Shown here one piece after another: positions 6,245 to 17,868 of a stretch of DNA of 20,000 nt. The notes under the pieces are model-generated. The model was not told where the DNA came from. It made no database searches and worked only from the letters and a program-made list of their open reading frames with translations. Position numbers and translations under genes: made by a program. Source of the stretch: an uncultured virus (IMG/VR IMGVR_UViG_3300025502_001355) (lineage: Duplodnaviria; Heunggongvirae; Uroviricota; Caudoviricetes); the IMG/VR virus record IMGVR_UViG_3300025502_001355; one strand, 5' to 3'. Positions within the stretch are counted from its first letter, which is position 1, and every line of letters begins with the position of its first letter.

Positions 6245-7957
6245 ATGAAAATATTATTCTACCATTCTGAAGATAAACTATTCCATGACGTTGTACATCC
6301 TAATGACAGCGTTTTTGTGAAATCAACTAGTCTTTACCTTAAGACATATATAGAAATTAAAAAACCACAAATAGCCAAGAAGTTGGAATGGGCGATCCCA
6401 CAACAAGTTAAGTTATCTGACGATGAGCTAGTAAGTCTGATCCAACAAGAAAAACCAGATATGTTCTGCACTACTCATTATATCTGGAACTACATAGCAA
6501 TACTAGCACAGTTAGACAGAATCCGACCTCGAGTAGATTCTAGCATACTGTTTGTTACAGGGGGCCCTAGTGTAGATGTTAATATAAATCCAAATTACTT
6601 CTTAGAACATAAATTTGTTGATTATGCATTTTATGGGCCAGGCGAGAAAGCATTTGCTGAGTTCATTGAGAGGATGGTGCTTAACAAACCTTTAGTAAAA
6701 GAAGAACTTACAAACATGGCGTGGCCTGATTCTAATAGGGGTGCAATTGTAGCCGAATACGAATATGTTCCGCAATCTAAAATAAGTCCATACTTACATA
6801 ATGCAGAAATGTTCAAAGCCATGGTTGACGACATGTACGAGAAAAAACTGCAACCAATTATTTCGTACGAACTGACTAGGGGATGTCCTTACGCATGTAC
6901 TTTTTGTGATTGGAATAGCGGTTACGGAAACAAAACAACACGCAGGAAAGACAGTTACAAAGATGAAATTGATTTATTCCAAGCAGTTGGAGTAAAAAGT
7001 TTATTCATGGCAGACGCAAACCTGGGTCAGTACCAAGAGGATGTTGATCTAATAGAGTATATGGCAGATAAGAATCTAAACGAAAATGCAAGTTTTAGAT
7101 TAGATTACACAGTAAGCAAATTACGAAAAGATAACAACATAAAAATATTCCATACTATGGCAAAAGCAAATCTGTGTAGACATTTCGTAATAAGTGTACA
7201 AGATAATAATCCAACAATACTTGAGAACATAGATAGACCCGACGTCGGGTGGGATGTACACACTAGTCATATAAGAGAACTTAGAGAGTTATACCCGCAC
7301 CTACCATCAGCAGTACAGTTAATACAAGGACTACCCGGACAGACAGTTGATTCCTGGAGACAAACCTTGTCTGACATGGCCAACGAACATGTAATACCAT
7401 TTGTATATGTAAGCGAACTGCTATCTGCAAGTCCGGCAGCCAGAAGTAACGAGTATATTAATAAATGGAAGTTTGAGTACAGTAACTCCCTAAGATGGGA
7501 CTTCCACGGACAAAGTGAATTCAGTAGTCCTTTTACGCAAAGTTGTGTGTCATTCACTCAACACGACTTTATAGAGATGACAATGCTAAGTTTAATACAT
7601 GCAACTATAAATTTTTACAAAGTGTACAAAGTAGGAAAGTTAATGGACTATATTAGCTTTGACGCAGATAAGATAGTAGACTTATTCTTAGTAAGTGATC
7701 TTTATCAGATTCTAAGAGACAATTTGGCTGAAAACTGGTTAATACACAACAAGTTCTATTTTACAACTGAACTGGATCGTACACCCACAGCGAAGCCGAT
7801 CACTGCATGTTCTATGGCAGTGTCAGACATGACTTCGAAGTTGAACACTAACGGACAGTTTCTTAAATGGACATTACAACATATTTCAGCATCGTCCAGC
7901 AGTAAGCGCAATGATTATGCAAAACAAATCTATAGAAGGATGCACCATGAGCATTAA
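6245..7957 (+). CDS. B12-binding-domain radical SAM protein
   Basis: 570 aa. RGCPYACTFCDW (CxxxCxxC). N-terminal PDMFCTTHYIWN, VTGGPSV and YGPGEKAF are typical of cobalamin-binding class B radical SAM enzymes; also ADANLG, ISVQ and LIQGLPGQT. Confidence 0.88.
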   Translation: MKILFYHSEDKLFHDVVHPNDSVFVKSTSLYLKTYIEIKKPQIAKKLEWAIPQQVKLSDDELVSLIQQEKPDMFCTTHYIWNYIAILAQLDRIRPRVDSSILFVTGGPSVDVNINPNYFLEHKFVDYAFYGPGEKAFAEFIERMVLNKPLVKEELTNMAWPDSNRGAIVAEYEYVPQSKISPYLHNAEMFKAMVDDMYEKKLQPIISYELTRGCPYACTFCDWNSGYGNKTTRRKDSYKDEIDLFQAVGVKSLFMADANLGQYQEDVDLIEYMADKNLNENASFRLDYTVSKLRKDNNIKIFHTMAKANLCRHFVISVQDNNPTILENIDRPDVGWDVHTSHIRELRELYPHLPSAVQLIQGLPGQTVDSWRQTLSDMANEHVIPFVYVSELLSASPAARSNEYINKWKFEYSNSLRWDFHGQSEFSSPFTQSCVSFTQHDFIEMTMLSLIHATINFYKVYKVGKLMDYISFDADKIVDLFLVSDLYQILRDNLAENWLIHNKFYFTTELDRTPTAKPITACSMAVSDMTSKLNTNGQFLKWTLQHISASSSSKRNDYAKQIYRRMHHEH

Positions 7958-9280: not shown

Positions 9281-10651
9281 ATGGCTGTTACCCAAATAAG
9301 TAGAATTCAACATAGACGAGGTCTTAATCAAGACCTACCACAACTTGCTGGCGCAGAGCTCGGCTGGAGTGTAGACACACGTAAATTATATATCGGTAAC
9401 GGTACCGTAGCAGAAGGTGCACCAGCTACTGGTATTACAGAAGTGTTAACACAATACACTGACTTAGCGGCATTGATTGGTTCGTATACTTTTAAGGGAA
9501 ATGTTACAGAGTATACTGTCGAAACTGGCAGTAGTATCCTTAATCCAACAGTACGCAGTTTCCAACAGAAATTTGATGACTTTGTTAATATTAGAGACTT
9601 TGGCGCAGTAGGTGACGGTGTTGCGGATGATACGGCATCGATCCGTCGTGCAATCGAACAGATATATAAAGAATCAGAAAATAATTTCGATACTCGCACA
9701 CGAAGAACAATTTATATTCCTGCAGGAACATACTTAACCAGTAATGTTATTAGCATTCCGCCTAACACAAGTTTACAAGGTGACGGACCGTCTAGCAGTA
9801 CAATTAAGTTAACTTATGGTAATTTAACTGTAGCAAATTTGTCAGACAGCGCATTCCAAAGTGGAGCAACAATTGGGACAGGCAGTGCAGTACTACCTGA
9901 TCAAATCGATATAAGCGGATTAACGTTCCAAAACGTATCTGCAGACGTTCAGTATCCTTTGCTAAACATCGATAGTGCTAGTAATGTTAGAATAACAAAC
10001 ACAGCTTTTCAGTCTAATATCAAAGCAGGAACTTATTACCCTAACGTAATTGAAATATTAAGTACCAGCACCAGTACACAAAATATTACGTTAGACAAAG
10101 TCAAAATATTAGGTGGTGGTAACGGTATTGTAAACATGGGATCTACTACAAAGTTTGTTAACATACTTAATTCTGAGTTTGATGGTATCAGCAATACTGC
10201 AATAGTATTGAACAGTGTTGATAGTGTTAGTAGTATTAACAACTACTTCGGAACTGTTGGCACAAGAAAAACTACTGCAGGCGCAACTAGTTTTGTTTCC
10301 TTTGGTGAAGTACATACTAACGGAAGCGCACTGACTACTGGTATGCAACTAGGTAATCTAAGATACGGAGTAGCACGTAGTGCGTCAATTAGTACTGCTT
10401 CGCCGGTTATTGCAACATTCGTTGCTAACACAGCAGGCGAAATAAAGTATCAAATCAGTAACAGTTCAGCAAAACGTTTTGGTACATACCAATTCAGTAC
10501 AGATGGAACAAGTTCAGAGTTTCATGATCAACATGTGGAAAATGGAGTTGGTGTTAAAGCAAACTTATTCGCCAATGCCACTAGTTTAACCGTCACATTA
10601 GAATCAGGCACAGGCACATTTAAATACGCAATCAATCAATTTATTAGTTAA
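9281..10651 (+). CDS. Tail fibre/spike protein with Mtd-N-like N-terminus and pectate-lyase-like beta-helix
   Basis: 456 aa. RIQHRRG...LAGAELGWSVDTRKLYIGNG at the N-terminus, VNIRDFGAVGDGVADDTASIRRAI...IYIPAGTY beta-helix cap, and Ser/Thr/Asn-rich repeats. Confidence 0.82.
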   Translation: MAVTQISRIQHRRGLNQDLPQLAGAELGWSVDTRKLYIGNGTVAEGAPATGITEVLTQYTDLAALIGSYTFKGNVTEYTVETGSSILNPTVRSFQQKFDDFVNIRDFGAVGDGVADDTASIRRAIEQIYKESENNFDTRTRRTIYIPAGTYLTSNVISIPPNTSLQGDGPSSSTIKLTYGNLTVANLSDSAFQSGATIGTGSAVLPDQIDISGLTFQNVSADVQYPLLNIDSASNVRITNTAFQSNIKAGTYYPNVIEILSTSTSTQNITLDKVKILGGGNGIVNMGSTTKFVNILNSEFDGISNTAIVLNSVDSVSSINNYFGTVGTRKTTAGATSFVSFGEVHTNGSALTTGMQLGNLRYGVARSASISTASPVIATFVANTAGEIKYQISNSSAKRFGTYQFSTDGTSSEFHDQHVENGVGVKANLFANATSLTVTLESGTGTFKYAINQFIS

Positions 10652-11117: not shown

Positions 11118-13421
11118 ATGACAAAGATTCAAGTAATCAAGAGAGATGGAATCAAAGAAGAACTAGACATAGAAAAAATGCACAAGGTTGTTATGTGGGC
11201 AACTGAAGGTATTACAGGTGTAAGTGCCAGTGAAGTAGAACTAAAAAGCCACATCCAATTTTATACTGGGATCAAAACAGTAGACATACAAGAAACACTT
11301 ATTAAAAGTGCCGCTGATTTGATTTCAGAAGAAGCTCCAAACTATCAGTATGTTGCTGGCAGACTAATTAACTATCATCTACGTAAACAAGTATATGGGG
11401 ACTATGCACCTTGGCCATTGTTAAAACTGGTAGAACACAATGTCGAAAGTGGTTTTTACGATCGCGGCCTATTAGAAGCATACGATACAGATGAGTGGGA
11501 GAAATTAGATAGTTATATTAAACATGATCGTGATGAAACATTCACCTATGTTGCTATGGAACAATGGCGTGGCAAGTATCTTGTACAAAATCGTGTTACT
11601 GGTGAGATGTTTGAGACTCCACAAATGGCTTACATGTTAATAGCCGCGACACTATTCCAAGACTACCCTAAAGATATTAGACTCAAATGGGTACGTGATT
11701 ACTATGACGCAATCAGTAATTTTGATGTAAGTTTGCCTACACCGGTTATGGCAGGTGTGCGCACACCACAAAAACAGTTCAGCAGTTGTGTGCTGATTGA
11801 AACAGACGACAGTTTAGACAGTATCAATGCAACAGCCGCAAGTATTGTTAAGTACGTGTCACAAAAAGCAGGCATTGGCATTGGTGCAGGACGTATACGT
11901 GCATTAGGTGCACCTATACGCAAAGGAGATGCTTTTCACACAGGCGTAACTCCTTTTTACAAGTTATTCCAATCTGCTACACGTAGTTGTAGTCAGGGAG
12001 GTGTAAGAAATGGTGCCGCAACACTTTACTATCCAATATGGCACTATGAAATCGAAGACCTCTTGGTCCTTAAAAACAACAAAGGCACAGAGGATAATCG
12101 TGTGCGTCAAATGGACTATGGCGTACAATTTAATAAGTTAATGTATGAAAGACTAATCACAAATGGAGACATCACTGTGTTTAGTCCGCATGATGTACCA
12201 GAGATGTATGAAGCGTTCTTCAATGATCAAGACAAATTCAAAGAGCTATACGAGAGAGCAGAACGCAATACTAAACTGAGGAAGAAGACCTACAAGGCAG
12301 CAGATCTGTTTAGTAGGTTTATGCAGGAACGCAAAGACACTGGAAGAATTTATTTACAGAACGTGGATCATGCTAATACGCACTCACCGTTCGATGAAAA
12401 GATCGCGCCTGTGAAGATGAGTAACCTTTGCGCAGAAATAGATTTACCAACTGTACCATTGAAAGATGTCAATGACGAGGATGGTAGGATCGCCCTGTGT
12501 ACTTTATCAGCGATCAATTGGGGCAATGTAAAAAGCCCACATGACTTTGAGAAAATGTGCAAGTTGGCAGTACGCGGCCTAGATGCACTGTTGAGTTACC
12601 AAGGTTATCCAATTAAAGCCGCACGTAAAGCAACAGAAGAGTTTAGACCGTTAGGTATAGGCATCATTAACTTTGCTTATTTCTTGGCTAAGAATGATGT
12701 AAGTTACAGTGACCCAGCGGCGTTGCCACTGGTAGATGAGTACGCAGAAGCCTGGTCTTACTATTTGATCAAGGCTTCTGCAGACTTAGCGGAAGAACAA
12801 GGTGCATGCACCAGATGGAACGATTTAAAATCTGCGCAAGGTCGTTTACCCATTGATACGTATAAGCAGGATGTTGACGAGTTGGTCAAGCATCAAGAGC
12901 GTATGCCATGGAATGATCTGCGAGAACAAATAAAACGGACTGGTCAGCGTAATGCAACACTAATGGCATTGATGCCTGCAGAAACAAGTGCGCAGATCAG
13001 TAATGCTACTAATGGTATAGAGCCACCGCGAAGTTTTGTAAGCGTTAAGGGGTCAAAGCACGGCCAATTAAAGCAGGTTGTGCCTGAATATAGGCGGTTA
13101 AAGAACCGTTATGAACTACTGTGGGATCAGACTACCCCGGAGGGATATATTAAACTGTGTGGCGTACTTCAAAAGTACATTGATCAAGGTATTAGTGTAA
13201 ACACATCTTACAATCCTCAGCACTACGAGGACGAAAAGATTCCAATGTCATCAATGTTACAACACTTGTTGATGTGTTACAAGTATGGATTAAAGCAGTT
13301 GTACTACTTTAATACATATGATGGACAAGGTGAATACATAGTAGAAGCACTAGGTGAAGCAAAACAGCAAGAGCTTGAAGACTACGAAGATCAAGATGAT
13401 TGCGAAAGTTGTGTAATTTAA
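11118..13421 (+). CDS. nrdA: Ribonucleotide reductase class Ia alpha subunit with ATP cone
   Basis: 767 aa. VIKRDG ATP cone, [35 protein letters not shown] (N-C-E active site), ALCTL, LYYFNT tyrosine dyad and C-terminal CESC. Confidence 0.98.
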
Positions 13422-13431
13422 GAGAGAAAAC

Positions 13432-14559
13432 ATGAGCGTATTCAATATTAAAAATAATAAAGATCATACCAAGTCACTTGCGTTCCTAGACGAAGCAGGT
13501 ACTCCGGCAATACAGAGATTCGACACACTAAAGTATCGTCAATTTGACAAGTTGACAGACAAGCAGTTAGGTTTCTTTTGGAGACCTGAAGAAGTTGATG
13601 TATTGCGTGATGCAAAAGACTTTAAGGAACTTACTGAGTATGAAAAGCATATCTTCACCAGTAATCTTAAAAGACAGATACTACTGGACAGTGTACAAGG
13701 ACGCTCACCTAATCTAGCATTTTTGCCTATCGCTACCATCCCAGAGTTGGAAACTTGGATAGAAACTTGGGCATTTAATGAAACAATACACAGTCGTAGT
13801 TATACACATATTATTCGTAATGTGTACAGCGATCCGAGTACAGTGTTTGATGGACTACACGATATCAAAGAGATTGCAGATTGTGCCAAAGACATTAGTC
13901 ACTACTATGATGACTTGATTAAAGCTGTGCAGTATTATAATCTACTTGGCGTAGGCAAGCACAAGGTTAACGGCAAGGAAGTTATAGTTGATCGTTACGA
14001 GTTAAAACGTAAACTATGGTTATGCTTAAACAATGTTAATGCGTTAGAAGGTATACGTTTTTATGTTTCGTTTGCATGCAGTTGGGCATTTGCTGAACTT
14101 AAAAAGATGGAAGGCAATGCTAAGATTATTAAACTGATTGCACGTGATGAAAATGTTCACTTGGGCAGTACACAAACACTACTTAAAATATTACCGTCAG
14201 ACGACAAGGACTTTGCAAAGATCCGCGAAGAAACTAAAGAGGAATGTGAAACAATGTTCCTTAATGCCGCCAAGCAGGAAAGAGATTGGGCACAATACTT
14301 GTTCAAAGACGGTAGTATGATTGGACTAAACACAGTATTATTGTGTCAGTACATTGATTGGTTGACCTGCAAGCGTATGACAGCAGTTGGGCTTAGTTGT
14401 GGTATTAAAACAGGTAGCAATCCGTTGCCGTGGACACAAAAGTGGATTGCTGGGGCAGAAGTGCAGGTGGCACCACAGCAAACTCAAATATCATCATATA
14501 TAATTGGTGGAACCAAACAAGACGTGGACTCAAACACGTTCAGTGGCTTTACTCTTTAA
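13432..14559 (+). CDS. nrdB: Ribonucleotide reductase class Ia beta subunit (tail has Gln at the Glu350/Glu352-equivalent positions)
   Basis: 375 aa. [23 protein letters not shown] (radical Tyr), [17 protein letters not shown], and tail [11 protein letters not shown] with Tyr356. Confidence 0.97.
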
Positions 14560-15690
14560 ATGTGGAGTAACCCAGTTACAATTGACAATGAGATTATGTC
14601 TATGGCAAAAGCTCTCGATTGTAATTGGGTAGGAGCAGTTAAAGTTAACGCACAGTCTGCATACGAGTATAATAACTGCCATAACAATGTTAGAATACAC
14701 TCTAGTATATACGGCGGCAAGAAAGTAATTGGCTATTATTTTATAAAGGGGTTCAATGTTGTGCAGGCCATAAGACACAGTGTATGGCAAGATAACACGT
14801 TAGTAGACGTAACACCATATAAAGATAACAGAGAACACATTATTTTTGCGTTAAGTTCAGACCAATCCAACGATTACTCGATACCTAACTGTTACTCTCA
14901 GTCTCTTGCTAAATATTTAAAACAGGAGAGTGACCGAATGTATTATGTATATCAAATAGTGGATCCGAGAAATAACCAACCATTTTATATCGGCAAAGGT
15001 ACAGGTGACAGAGCAACAACACATTTACGGACTGTGTCCGACACTAGAAATGTTTACAAAGAAAATAAAATCGCGAGTATAAGAAAGTCCGGAGCAGAGC
15101 CAGTAATTGAATACATTGCTGAAAACATATTAGACGAGGAATTAGCGTATGATATCGAGGCCACTGCAATTAAAAAGTATGGTAGAAAAGGATATGACAA
15201 GAATGGCATATTAACCAATATATGTCCTGATGCCCGCCCACCTAATCAGAAAGGTAGAACATACGAAGAAATATACGGGGTTAACAAAGCAAAGCAACAA
15301 CGAGAATTAAGATCACGCCTTCAGAAAGAGAGAGGTGGATATGGCCCTAAGCAACACAGCATCGAAACACGAAAACGATTTAGTGAATTAAATTCTGGTG
15401 CCGGAAACCCAATGTACGGTAAAACACAAAAAGAAAGTACCAAGGCATTAATTAGCAAAAAAGCAAAGTTGCGAATCGGTAAAAAAAATAAAAATAGCCA
15501 CACTTACAGACTAACATCTCCAACAGGGGATGAGCACATATTATACGGCGGTGAATCTACTGATTTCTGTAAAACACATAATTTAAGTTGGAGTACTCTT
15601 AAAATGCAAATTGAAAAGAAATGGGGTATTCCAAAAAAAGGCAAAACTAAAGGTTGGAAGTTAGAAGACTTAACAGCTACTAGAACATAA
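14560..15690 (+). CDS. Fusion ORF: N-terminal papain/transglutaminase-like Cys-His-Asp domain (aa 1-126) plus GIY-YIG homing endonuclease with NUMOD3 motifs
   Basis: ATG directly abuts the nrdB TAA. N-terminal NNC40HNNV...GY...AIRH73SVW...LVD83VTP. From M127: YYVYQIVDP...FYIGKG..DR..H...E.A..IE...LTN, then HSIETRKRFS and GNPMYGKTQKESTKALIS. Confidence 0.75.
   Translation: MWSNPVTIDNEIMSMAKALDCNWVGAVKVNAQSAYEYNNCHNNVRIHSSIYGGKKVIGYYFIKGFNVVQAIRHSVWQDNTLVDVTPYKDNREHIIFALSSDQSNDYSIPNCYSQSLAKYLKQESDRMYYVYQIVDPRNNQPFYIGKGTGDRATTHLRTVSDTRNVYKENKIASIRKSGAEPVIEYIAENILDEELAYDIEATAIKKYGRKGYDKNGILTNICPDARPPNQKGRTYEEIYGVNKAKQQRELRSRLQKERGGYGPKQHSIETRKRFSELNSGAGNPMYGKTQKESTKALISKKAKLRIGKKNKNSHTYRLTSPTGDEHILYGGESTDFCKTHNLSWSTLKMQIEKKWGIPKKGKTKGWKLEDLTATRT
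14891..14934 (+). promoter_or_regulatory. RBS-sequestering hairpin with a late promoter in the loop
   Basis: GTTACTCTC (14891-14899) pairs with GAGAGTGAC (14926-14934), 9 bp with one G-U. Alternatively TCTCTTG (14902-14908) pairs with CAGGAGA (14923-14929). GCTAAATA lies between the arms. Confidence 0.65.
14938..15690 (+). mobile_element. Free-standing GIY-YIG homing endonuclease with its own internal start
   Basis: Own late promoter (GCTAAATA, 14908-14915), AGGAG (14924-14928) and ATG 14938. GIY-YIG and NUMOD3 motifs. Located next to nrdB, a classical homing endonuclease neighbourhood in T4-like phages. Confidence 0.8.
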
Positions 15691-15765
15691 ATGAAAATAG
15701 ACAGAGGAATATACGTAGGTGGCTACAGCTTGGTACCAGATCAACTAATTAGGACTAATCGGGGT

Positions 15766-15793
15766 TTGACAAATAATTTTTAACAAGTATAAT
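15766..15793 (+). promoter_or_regulatory. sigma70-type promoter for glutaredoxin
   Basis: TTGACA (15766-15771), 16 nt spacer, TATAAT (15788-15793); ATG 7 nt downstream. Confidence 0.75.
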
Positions 15794-15800
15794 TAAGCGT

Positions 15801-16046
15801 ATGATTACAATATATTCAAAAAACAATTGTCCTTTTTGCACAAAGGCCAAAGCACTACTAGAGATCAAAGGTATAAAGTACACCGAAGTAAACATTGAAC
15901 AAGATGCAGATGCAAGGAAACGCATCGTTGACGCTGGCTTGCGTACAGTACCTCAGATTTATATCAATGAACAACTGCTACCTGGAGGATACAATGGGTT
16001 AGCAGATCAAACAACTGAATTTTTCGATAAGCTCAAGGAGAGTTAA
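15801..16046 (+). CDS. Glutaredoxin (NrdC/GrxC-like)
   Basis: 81 aa. IYSKNNCPFC, RTVPQIYI and GGY motifs; adjacent to nrdAB. Confidence 0.95.
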   Translation: MITIYSKNNCPFCTKAKALLEIKGIKYTEVNIEQDADARKRIVDAGLRTVPQIYINEQLLPGGYNGLADQTTEFFDKLKES

Positions 16047-16344: not shown

Positions 16345-16650
16345 CTAGCCGCCGGCAAACACAGTAGGTGATCCGCTTATCATAGCACCGGCGTCGGCAC
16401 TATCACCTATTCTACCTACTCCAATACCATTGAGGAAAACACTACCTGAACCAGCATTTAAAAATGCCACGTGAGGTACGCATGAATCTCCACTGGGTAT
16501 TAGGTGAGATACTGTCGGAGCACCAACTACTATAATGTCAATACCGTTAGCATGAACAGTGCCGTCGTTGTTTGGCGAAGCAATGGTTGTTGTGGTATCA
16601 CATCCATGTCCGGTTGTTAGTGTGTCACCTACTCTACATATTGCTGGCAT
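16345..16650 (-). CDS. PAAR-domain baseplate spike tip protein (T4 gp5.4-like)
   Basis: 101 aa. MPAICRVGD...GHGC, TVHANG, H...C.PH, GSGSVFLNGIGVGRIGD, SGSPTVFAG. Own late promoter on the minus strand. Confidence 0.9.
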   Translation of the reverse strand: MPAICRVGDTLTTGHGCDTTTTIASPNNDGTVHANGIDIIVVGAPTVSHLIPSGDSCVPHVAFLNAGSGSVFLNGIGVGRIGDSADAGAMISGSPTVFAGG

Positions 16651-16766: not shown

Positions 16767-17393
16767 ATGAAGCAAGATCTAACCAAATGGTCAAGATTAG
16801 TAACATTTTTTCTAGGAACGTGGCTGGTAGTATATGCAATTATTGCAGTCACTAGTAATGTTAAAGCGCCAGCAAACCAAGCAGTGGGCGCAGAAACTAT
16901 CGAAATTATTAACACAGCAGTAAAGCAATCGCCTGTTGACATGAGACAGGTTAGGCGAGAATTGGATTGCCTTGCTAGGAACATATACTGGGAAGCTCGT
17001 AGTGAGCCAGTTGAAGGTATGATTGCTGTGGCACAGGTCACTCTTAACCGAGTGGCACACAACAGTTTCCCTGATGATATATGTGATGTGGTATATCAAG
17101 GCCCAACCAAAGCATCCTGGAAAGACAAGAGTGTATATTATCCTGTAAAACATCGTTGCCAATTCAGTTGGTACTGTGATGGTAAATCAGATCGCATTTC
17201 GTCAGTTAATCAAACTATCTTTGACCGTTGCTATGAAGTAGCCAGACAGGTATTAATTGAAGGCAAAAGATTACCTGGCTTAAAACAAGCAGTATTCTAT
17301 CATGCAGATTATGTTAGCCCTGTCTGGCGTTATCCTAAATTGGCTAAAATAGGCACACACATATTTTACGGTGATAGAAACAGCCAAAACTAA
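16767..17393 (+). CDS. SleB-like cell wall hydrolase (Hydrolase_2 family) with N-terminal membrane anchor
   Basis: CLARNIYWEARSE (catalytic Glu), AVAQVTLNRV, ICDVVYQ, CQFSWYCDG, FYHADYVSP and IGTHIFY. Hydrophobic residues ~11-28, AGGAG RBS. Confidence 0.92.
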   Translation: MKQDLTKWSRLVTFFLGTWLVVYAIIAVTSNVKAPANQAVGAETIEIINTAVKQSPVDMRQVRRELDCLARNIYWEARSEPVEGMIAVAQVTLNRVAHNSFPDDICDVVYQGPTKASWKDKSVYYPVKHRCQFSWYCDGKSDRISSVNQTIFDRCYEVARQVLIEGKRLPGLKQAVFYHADYVSPVWRYPKLAKIGTHIFYGDRNSQN

Positions 17394-17436: not shown

Positions 17437-17868
17437 ATGTCAAAGATTTTATTTTTTCTATTGTTTATTCCCACATTGTTATTCTCAGCTGATCTTCATC
17501 AGATGAACGAAAATGATCTGGCACTAGATATTACGAACTCAGACACAGTACAAAATGGTCGAGAGTGGTACGACAGACGTTGTTCCTTCTGTCATGGTGG
17601 CCAAGGCAAAGGTGGCAAAGGTCCTTGCTTAACATGTGGCAAGTTTACATACAGTTCAAATACCAACATGGGTATATTCACAACCATTAGTGTGGGCATT
17701 ACCAATCAGAGTTTAGGCGGCACAATGGGTGCATTTGGTACAACCATTGACGGTATGGATATAGTTGCTATTGTAACTTACTTACGGTCAGAAGAAAGAC
17801 GCAGAATTGAGTCTGGTGAAATTAAAGATCCATACATTGTGCAAGAACAGATGGTCTTCCCGGAATAA
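17437..17868 (+). CDS. Secreted monoheme c-type cytochrome
   Basis: Signal peptide MSKILFFLLFIPTLLFSA, G..WY...C49SFC52H53 heme-binding motif, GP.L, candidate axial Met97 (TMGAF), and C-terminal helix DIVAIVTYLRS. Confidence 0.87.
   Translation: MSKILFFLLFIPTLLFSADLHQMNENDLALDITNSDTVQNGREWYDRRCSFCHGGQGKGGKGPCLTCGKFTYSSNTNMGIFTTISVGITNQSLGGTMGAFGTTIDGMDIVAIVTYLRSEERRRIESGEIKDPYIVQEQMVFPE

Follow-up and report, generated by a model that had tools for sequence, protein, structure and literature searches.

Why would a phage encode glutamine at a position of its ribonucleotide reductase (RNR) where glutamate is held to be essential for radical transfer? The question is raised by the nrdB gene (class Ia RNR beta subunit) in a 20,000-nt stretch of DNA, hereafter the window, from an uncultured virus of the Caudoviricetes (IMG/VR IMGVR_UViG_3300025502_001355). 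The nrdB product has the tail VAPQ-Q350-T-Q352-ISS-Y356, encoded from residue 349 on by CAG (Q349), CAA (Q350), ACT, CAA (Q352), ATA, TCA, TCA and TAT (Y356). The stop codon (TAA, 14557-14559) is directly abutted by the ATG (14560) of an open reading frame (ORF) of 376 aa (14560-15690), which consists of a 126-aa N-terminal domain containing Cys40, His73 and Asp83, a GIY-YIG part starting at M127, and a NUMOD3 motif; nrdA, nrdB, this ORF and the glutaredoxin gene (grx) follow each other head to tail on the + strand. An initial annotation of the window had pointed out the two CAA codons, the abutting ATG and the fusion of a Cys40/His73/Asp83 domain to a GIY-YIG nuclease, and both the sequence and the alignment described below agree with it. 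Here we show that the cassette made up of the replacement tail and the ORF is mobile, that it enters exactly in front of codon 350 and displaces the old tail with Glu350 (E-tail), and that the tail with Gln350 (Q-tail) is strictly paired with the Cys-His-Asp protein. The reading that we favour, at a probability of about 0.5, is that of a homing cassette with a recoded tail, in which the Cys-His-Asp protein would deamidate the glutamines back to glutamate.

The features of the locus are the following:

11118..13421 (+): nrdA, class Ia RNR alpha subunit, 767 aa (Pfam ATP-cone, Ribonuc_red_lgN and Ribonuc_red_lgC); partner of the recoded tail
13432..14559 (+): nrdB, 375-aa beta subunit of the class Ia RNR, ending in the Q350/Q352 tail (match to PF00268 at E 6.2e-40 and to E. 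coli NrdB at E 2.1e-140)
14454..14559 (+): replacement 3′ end of nrdB, the donor tract arriving with the cassette (mismatch pattern against the loci L117 and L002, see below)
14479..14481 (+): CAA, Gln350 (Glu in cassette-free relatives)
14485..14487 (+): CAA, Gln352
14497..14499 (+): TAT, Tyr356, the radical-relay tyrosine, which is kept
14560..14937 (+): N-terminal Cys40/His73/Asp83 domain of an apparently undescribed family, candidate Gln-directed amidohydrolase
14938..15189 (+): GIY-YIG nuclease domain, aa 127-210 (phrog_5356, PF22945)
15349..15456 (+): NUMOD3 DNA-binding motif, aa 264-299 (PF07460, E 1e-07)
15691..15795 (+): right end of the variable segment, here without a relic of the old nrdB end (identity to L117 resumes at ~15796)
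15801..16046 (+): grx, glutaredoxin gene (PF00462, E 1.7e-20)

The glutamine codons are real. In the gapless alignment to E. coli NrdB (phmmer against PDB chains, E 2.1e-140, residues 26-375), PQQTQISSY of the window stands opposite PQEVEVSSY. The ferritin-like R2 domain, Tyr356 and the C-terminal alpha-binding tail of class Ia NrdB proteins are all present; Glu350, itself a NrdB hallmark, is absent, Gln being encoded, and the protein is assigned to NrdB by its overall homology. PQETEISSY is the reading in 117 of the 120 best NrdB homologues listed (83-100% identity), PQEVELSSY in one and PQQTQISSY in only two, the latter two being 100% identical to the window NrdB and found on 20 and 15 contigs. 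The stretch is present in 24 public salt-lake metagenome runs, and independently assembled contigs from four of these runs, none of them flagged as a possible source of the record, have no letter difference at codons 350 and 352. No RNA run is listed among those that contain it. The possibility of an assembly error at the CAA codons, which the initial annotation had named as a refuting condition, is thereby answered: the codons are neither chance nor an error of assembly. The nearest record (G001), a 44.6-kb fragment, holds one nrdB and one cassette ORF. The same lake runs also carry a second variant of the cassette, with clustered differences at 14908-15559 (region 14878-15682) and a loose end at 15682 that continues into a ...TIFKGFSL relic, as in the locus L003; two cassette lineages thus co-occur in one habitat.

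In E. coli, Glu350 of the beta subunit is called 'conserved and essential' in a passage of PMC9248007, and passages of PMC11482829 describe its bonds to K154 and S647 of the alpha subunit and to bridging waters, as well as the disruption of radical transfer upon substitution. Residues 4-738 of E. coli NrdA align to residues 5-739 of the window NrdA, where, by the ungapped offset, K153 and S646 are the equivalents of K154 and S647. The locus L117, which has an E-tail and no cassette, encodes an overlapping NrdA portion (the last 573 aa) identical to that of the window. That is, the same NrdA serves an E-tail NrdB in L117 and a Q-tail NrdB in the window, indicating that the alpha subunit has not been adapted to glutamine.

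Comparison of the window with L117 and with L002, a locus on a 221-kb contig, located the event that brought the new tail. L117 matches the window nearly base for base over positions 11700-14453, and again from ~15796 up to 17056, where the locus ends. Its mismatches number 0-1 per 100 nt over 13400-14299 and none at all over 14356-14453; from 14454, 25 nt before codon 350, they become dense, with 27 up to the nrdB stop codon, including serine codons (TCA TCA versus AGC AGT). L002 has the reverse pattern: up to ~14440 it differs from the window at 10-20 positions in every 100 nt, and the 4.4 kb that follow are free of mismatches. These reciprocal patterns place a recombination boundary at the start of the tail (~14440-14454). 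A presence/absence polymorphism at one site with co-conversion of the flanks, a hallmark of homing, is thus observed, with L117 as the empty-site twin and L002 as the mosaic. The same comparison reveals the hallmark of the elements known as mobile ORFs (mORFs), a C-terminal coding piece of foreign origin that continues the reading frame of the host gene, seen here as 27 mismatches after ~1000 near-identical bases.

The old end of nrdB can still be found behind the cassette in 54 of 125 distinct loci, where it is in frame in 29 and set apart behind a stop codon in 25, the remaining 71 loci being without a relic. Ten distinct loci hold the full 26-codon relic, which in each case starts exactly at codon 350 with unrelated sequence before it; these full-length relics carry Glu350 and the copy in use carries Gln350, 16-25 of the 26 residues being matched between the two copies. 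The empty-site twin and the relics starting at codon 350 together identify the element as a homing cassette bringing a recoded replacement tail. In the window no relic of the nrdB end lies before grx: the ORF ends in ...LTATRT, and the cassette ORFs of relatives end in ...TIFKGFSL or ...KGFSL. A short frame (MKIDRGIYVGG...) does open at an ATG directly after the stop codon of the cassette ORF, in the 110-nt spacer before grx, and holds no recognisable nrdB-end relic. The idea that the relic E-tail, fused to the last cassette ORF, serves to dock on NrdA was ruled out, since only 29 relics are in frame, 25 lie behind a stop codon and 71 loci have none. In many cassette-free relatives grx follows directly after nrdB, representing the empty site. 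In L117, an 81-aa ORF (MKFDASKLVPY..., L117:2874-3119), membrane-associated in appearance, sits between nrdB and grx, at the site of the window's cassette. This ORF, and the direct succession of nrdB and grx elsewhere, suggest that the nrdB-grx junction is a general hot spot for small variable genes.

The nuclease has the make-up of a homing endonuclease, that is, a GIY-YIG catalytic domain combined with a separate DNA-binding module (NUMOD3). The GIY-YIG part is matched by phrog_5356 (E 1.4e-16, aa 127-208) and by PF22945 (27.5 bits, cut-off 27); TIGR01453, a group I intron endonuclease family, scores 24.3 bits on it, under its cut-off of 56. A group I intron or an intein was considered and rejected: the window contains no Rfam family at gathering scores and no tRNA gene, and the nrdB TAA precedes the start of the ORF.

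What distinguishes the two kinds of tail was examined over codons 341-359 in 126 distinct E-type and 83 distinct Q-type segments. The two sets are separated at no other positions than the first base of codon 350 and that of codon 352, which are G in the E-type and C in the Q-type segments. At codon 350 the separation is complete (G in 126/126, C in 83/83), by definition of the sets; at codon 352, the first base is G in 0.94 of the E-type and C in 0.96 of the Q-type segments. Wobble positions vary freely in both sets, and the changes in the tail stretch are all Glu to Gln, two or three per allele. In a second clade (~52% identity), the native ETEVESY becomes QTQVQSY beside the cassette, Glu350, Glu352 and Glu354 being encoded as Gln. 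All 21 of the Q-tails aligned conserve Tyr356 and the distal alpha-binding tail, and the Q-tail nrdB genes give full-length single tblastn matches without stop codons, in clades of 46-100% identity.

The initial annotation had predicted, as a test set beforehand, that Q-tails should occur only together with the Cys-His-Asp domain and that cassette-free E-tails should lack it, and this was what we found. All 19 of the 19 viral loci whose domain is 55-100% identical have [10 protein letters not shown] upstream. A wider scan, using an alignment of stand-alone members of the family, gave 149 relatives; among the best 80 of these 149 loci, which were retained, nrdB lies upstream in 76, and the other four have little or no DNA upstream of the domain. 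All 114 loci taken together comprise 64 distinct combinations of tail and ORF, the tail being visible in 60, with Q350 in 53 and E350 in seven. Searching in the opposite direction, from the Q-tail DNA pattern, we found the domain at 15 of 15 loci in viral contigs; in metagenome contigs the pattern occurs in 68 stretches, of which 64 have the domain, two are NrdB loci cut short and two are not NrdB. Every real Q-tail nrdB with enough DNA downstream is therefore accompanied by the domain (15/15 viral and 64/64 metagenome loci). Conversely, the domain, sought within 2.5 kb on either side, is absent from 79 of 79 cassette-free E-tail relatives of the window NrdB and from 75 of 75 E-tail relatives of the second clade. 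The pairing was also followed on a tree built from 201 distinct NrdB bodies without their tails, the domain being scored as absent where at least 1200 nt of downstream sequence lacked it. The counts were:

E350 NrdB bodies: domain present in 8, absent in 104, undetermined in 11
Q350 NrdB bodies: domain present in 76, absent in 0, undetermined in 2

This tree requires at least 17 changes between E and Q. The E350 bodies that bear the domain fit reversion at the most costly position.

The association of domain and nuclease turned out to be looser than that of domain and tail. The fusion described for the window is the arrangement in 47 of 99 distinct domain ORFs, in which the domain is placed in front of the nuclease; in 39 of the 99, the domain is instead a separate gene behind the GIY-YIG ORF. 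In a further five a nuclease ORF lies behind the domain, some of these resembling frameshifted fusions, and in eight no nuclease was detectable, three of them being cut by contig ends. The five real nuclease-less loci (L026, L038, L044, L101 and L105) have kept the domain and all have a Q-tail, and no Q-tail locus was found with the nuclease and without the domain. The domain thus outlasts the nuclease. All 38 nuclease relatives at 35% identity or more are accompanied by the domain, and 32 were scored as Q-tail by script; L378, one of the six outside this call, has the tail [14 protein letters not shown]. Ten more distant nuclease relatives are located elsewhere, without the domain and without an NrdB tail. 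Together with the separate ORFs, these distant nucleases indicate that the domain does not belong inherently to the nuclease. The selfish homing system proposed by the initial annotation is thus upheld as regards its mobility, with the boundary ~25 nt upstream of codon 350, the insertion point defined by the relics and the comparative pattern, and has to be amended in two respects: the domain is not always fused, and 8 of the 84 domain-bearing NrdB bodies have E350.

The Cys-His-Asp domain itself has no match in Pfam, PHROG or NCBIfam, and 95 relatives were found at E ≤ 0.001 among 1.84 billion representatives. Many of these stand alone, with lengths of 115-148 aa, and some 15 are joined to a GIY-YIG domain. 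Distant relatives (P0169, P0180, P0202, P0204 and others; ~190-225 aa long and 27-33% identical) have a SEC-C metal-binding motif at the C-terminus, a hint that they come from bacteria. By these sequence comparisons the domain represents an undescribed family. C40, H73 and D83 are the only invariant columns in an alignment of 79 sequences, and the triad is kept in 87 of 87 distinct near-full-length domains from the loci fetched. In the AF2 model of the domain (pLDDT 93.0), Cys40 starts a helix (40-51), His73 lies in a strand (67-78) and Asp83 in another (80-83), a predicted placement that corresponds to the papain/transglutaminase type of triad. All three parts of the ORF are under purifying selection (dN/dS: domain, 0.12-0.31; GIY-YIG part, 0.07-0.14; C-terminal part, 0.06-0.21). 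In L199 (1118-1324 plus the next ORF), beside a Q-tail nrdB, the domain is encoded in two different frames, one covering profile positions 1-61 and the other 61-126; this could be either a frameshifted pseudogene or a sequencing error. Prediction of a complex of the domain with the 40-aa NrdB tail, run without controls, scored 0.23 against a mark of 0.32, and in the AF2 model of P0142, a natural protein combining the domain with a relic tail, the tail blocks have a pLDDT of 52-73, too low to show docking in cis. Among deposited phage genomes there is no DNA match to the locus, and tblastn with three domain queries returned one weak match, in an unannotated record; no cultured carrier was found.

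How could such a cassette work? It consists of three parts: a replacement for the last 26 codons of nrdB, with Glu350 and Glu352 (in another clade also Glu354) encoded as Gln; a GIY-YIG/NUMOD3 homing endonuclease; and a Cys-His-Asp protein of ~120 aa, either fused to the nuclease or encoded by a separate gene. Judging from the relics and the allele-defining changes, the nuclease would recognise the conserved coding stretch for PQETE, within which the insertion point falls. Since nrdB is made whole again by the cassette, the target site would re-form at the left junction, and the first-base G-to-C changes in the glutamate codons would prevent this; the insertion at codon 350, as defined by the relics, fits such a protection of the rebuilt left junction. 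The Cys-His-Asp protein would then repair the Gln tail after translation, the cysteine attacking the side-chain amide of glutamine, ammonia leaving and the thioester being hydrolysed to glutamate, Gln being the sole substitution that can be converted to Glu by hydrolysis of this kind. RNR would from then on depend on the cassette, which would favour retention of the enzyme even after decay of the nuclease. Deamidation of glutamine would explain why all changes are from Glu to Gln, why the alpha subunit is unchanged and why the domain is retained without the nuclease. The fuller proposal, namely a selfish element that gains immunity by rewriting the non-degenerate bases of glutamate codons in the RNR beta subunit, restores the glutamates with a Gln deamidase of its own and thereby makes the host RNR catalytically dependent on it, is one that we put forward tentatively, as having somewhat less than an even chance.

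A number of observations weigh against this proposal. The deamidase chemistry of the domain is a prediction, and an enzyme selective for the recoded residues would need to leave the native Q345 and Q349 untouched. No sequence link from the domain to any known deamidase was found in profile libraries or by sequence searches, Foldseek returned no matches for the domain model, and a wide structural search was topped by PeiW, TglA, PeiP and NATs at a similarity under the noise level of the tool. The window tail differs from L117 by many synonymous changes, in the serine codons, which might by themselves be a source of immunity. The E. coli E350Q variant itself is presumed to be inactive, and no relevant paper on E350Q was among the literature matches listed. 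The well-supported branches of the NrdB tree offer just five contrasts (each pointing the same way, p 0.06), so that independent contrasts are few, and as Q-tail, nuclease and domain lie within ~1.3 kb and travel together, their co-occurrence is expected from descent or linkage alone. The eight E350 bodies among the domain-bearing ones, six of which read ETQ[VI]Q.Y, mean that the domain also accompanies alleles other than Q350, and the locus L107, with a fully native ETEVESY tail in the presence of both domain and nuclease, that immunity need not always involve Q350. Finally, L369 and L370 have the tail PQQTAITSY beside a fused domain-nuclease ORF, that is, Gln350 together with an Ala352 that is not repairable to Glu; position 352, then, need not be Glu or Gln.

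Several of these points are what one would expect if linkage were all there is, the G-to-C changes being immunity mutations that the phage RNR tolerates, and the Cys-His-Asp protein a passenger or an accessory of the nuclease (in regulation, or directed against the host or its defences) with no action on NrdB. Co-occurrence by descent of three parts moving in one cassette, the five supported contrasts, the E350 alleles with the domain and the Ala352 of L369 and L370 all agree with it, as do the bacterial relatives of the domain, some of them fused to SEC-C, which by their make-up are not partners of a phage nrdB. It is harder to reconcile with the essential role of E350 in E. coli, as described in passages of PMC9248007 and PMC11482829, and with an NrdA that is unchanged between E-tail and Q-tail phages. 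Mutations selected for immunity alone would also have produced nothing but Glu-to-Gln changes in the stretch, two or three per allele, despite freely varying wobble sites, and a passenger would have been kept in five nuclease-less loci with the reverse never seen, and with nrdB upstream in 76 of 80 domain loci (the other four having little or no upstream DNA). For these reasons we regard linkage alone as unlikely, though still to be reckoned with.

The remaining alternatives ascribe another activity to the domain, or none to the gene that it accompanies. As a transglutaminase, the domain would link Gln350 to an amine such as the lysine with which E350 pairs in the alpha subunit, so as to tether beta to alpha, or to some other amine. 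Transglutaminases share this triad and its thioester chemistry, transglutaminase-like proteins are among the best fold rows, and E350 of E. coli contacts alpha K154 (in a passage of PMC11482829), a lysine that is kept here; yet a permanent cross-link would remove the carboxylate that RNR needs, E350 revertants would lose the link and nevertheless persist, and the data call for nothing beyond hydrolysis, so that we think this improbable. The nearest fold rows, weak as the matches are, are peptidases (PeiW, PeiP, staphopain), and with the papain-like triad they could point to a protease acting against the E-tail NrdB of hosts or competing phages, the Gln tail being an allele immune at the protein level too. 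Such a protease needs an active Q350 NrdB, would destroy the phage's own enzyme at the eight domain-bearing loci that encode E350 NrdB, and brings the phage no evident benefit, which makes it very improbable. Equally far-fetched to us is that the recoded nrdB is simply a casualty, inactivated by the cassette in a phage that lives on the host RNR. Many phages can draw on host nucleotide metabolism, and substitutions of E350 disrupt radical transfer in E. coli, again according to passages of PMC11482829; a dead gene would decay, however, and the Q-tail nrdB genes are full-length and free of stops across clades of 46-100% identity, with Tyr356 and the distal alpha-binding tail kept in 21 of 21.

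The cassette, read as a homing element with a deamidated tail, resembles several known systems in part. Closest in arrangement are the mORFs of fungal mitochondria (Allomyces atp6; Glomus atp6, atp9, cox2 and nad3), which likewise combine a foreign in-frame C-terminal piece, a GIY-YIG or LAGLIDADG ORF and a relic of the displaced native C-terminus, according to passages of PMC3630166; as described there, however, the inserted ends are 94-100% identical in protein sequence to a close relative and differ mostly by synonymous DNA changes. In the phage cassette, by contrast, an essential Glu is changed to Gln, a Cys-His-Asp protein forms an ever-present third component, the host is a phage and the target is nrdB. 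The free-standing homing endonucleases of T4-like phages (the seg genes, mobE between nrdA and nrdB, and I-TevIII in an nrdB intron) share with it a GIY-YIG or HNH gene beside or within RNR genes. To our knowledge, none of them brings a recoded replacement end of its target gene or an additional enzyme domain. They spread by double-strand-break repair with co-conversion of flanking markers (PMC2790892, PMC2988022). Inteins and group I introns with homing endonucleases follow the same logic, since the element occupies the best-conserved region of an essential gene and undoes the damage that it causes, at the level of protein (intein) or RNA (intron); they differ in that there is no splicing here, the ORF comes after the nrdB stop codon, and the proposed repair is the editing of a side chain by an enzyme acting in trans. 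In chemoreceptor maturation by CheD (and CheB), a functional Glu is encoded as Gln and made by a dedicated deamidase, but this serves cellular regulation and has no tie to a mobile element or to nuclease immunity, and we found no sequence or clear fold relation of the domain to CheD. Maturation of Pup by Dop is a further case of a functional Glu that is encoded as Gln and made by a deamidase. Gln deamidases and peptidases of the papain/transglutaminase fold (protein-glutaminase, Cif, OspI and NTAQ1; PeiW and PeiP) have in common with the domain a Cys at the start of a helix and His and Asp on neighbouring strands. No publication describing a recoded-NrdB cassette with a Cys-His-Asp enzyme was found in literature searched mostly without subscription journals, and we could find no described system in which a homing cassette pairs the recoding of an essential residue with an enzyme dedicated to it.

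Elsewhere in the window lie genes for a B12-binding radical SAM protein (6245-7957) and a tail-fibre-like protein with Mtd_N and pectate-lyase-like domains (9281-10651), a weak match to a PAAR-motif protein on the - strand (16345-16650), and genes for a cell-wall hydrolase (Hydrolase_2, 16767-17393) and a c-type cytochrome (Cytochrome_CBB3, 17437-17868), the last being unusual phage cargo.

Even if deamidation should prove wrong, it would still be puzzling that dozens of phage lineages have Gln at a site regarded as essential for radical transfer, and so would an undescribed Cys-His-Asp protein that is strictly linked to nrdB. If it is right, the cassette would provide RNR enzymologists with a natural E350Q/E352Q beta subunit acting with an unchanged alpha subunit, and would define a new small family of site-specific protein deamidases. 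It would constitute an addiction module working by protein editing and explain how a homing nuclease persists after fixation, and the Glu in question would be a natural essential catalytic residue that exists only after post-translational editing. More generally, beside introns and inteins there would be a third route by which a nuclease can reside in the most conserved part of an essential gene, on a new principle: that mobile elements may target a sequence unable to mutate and repair the protein instead of the DNA or RNA.

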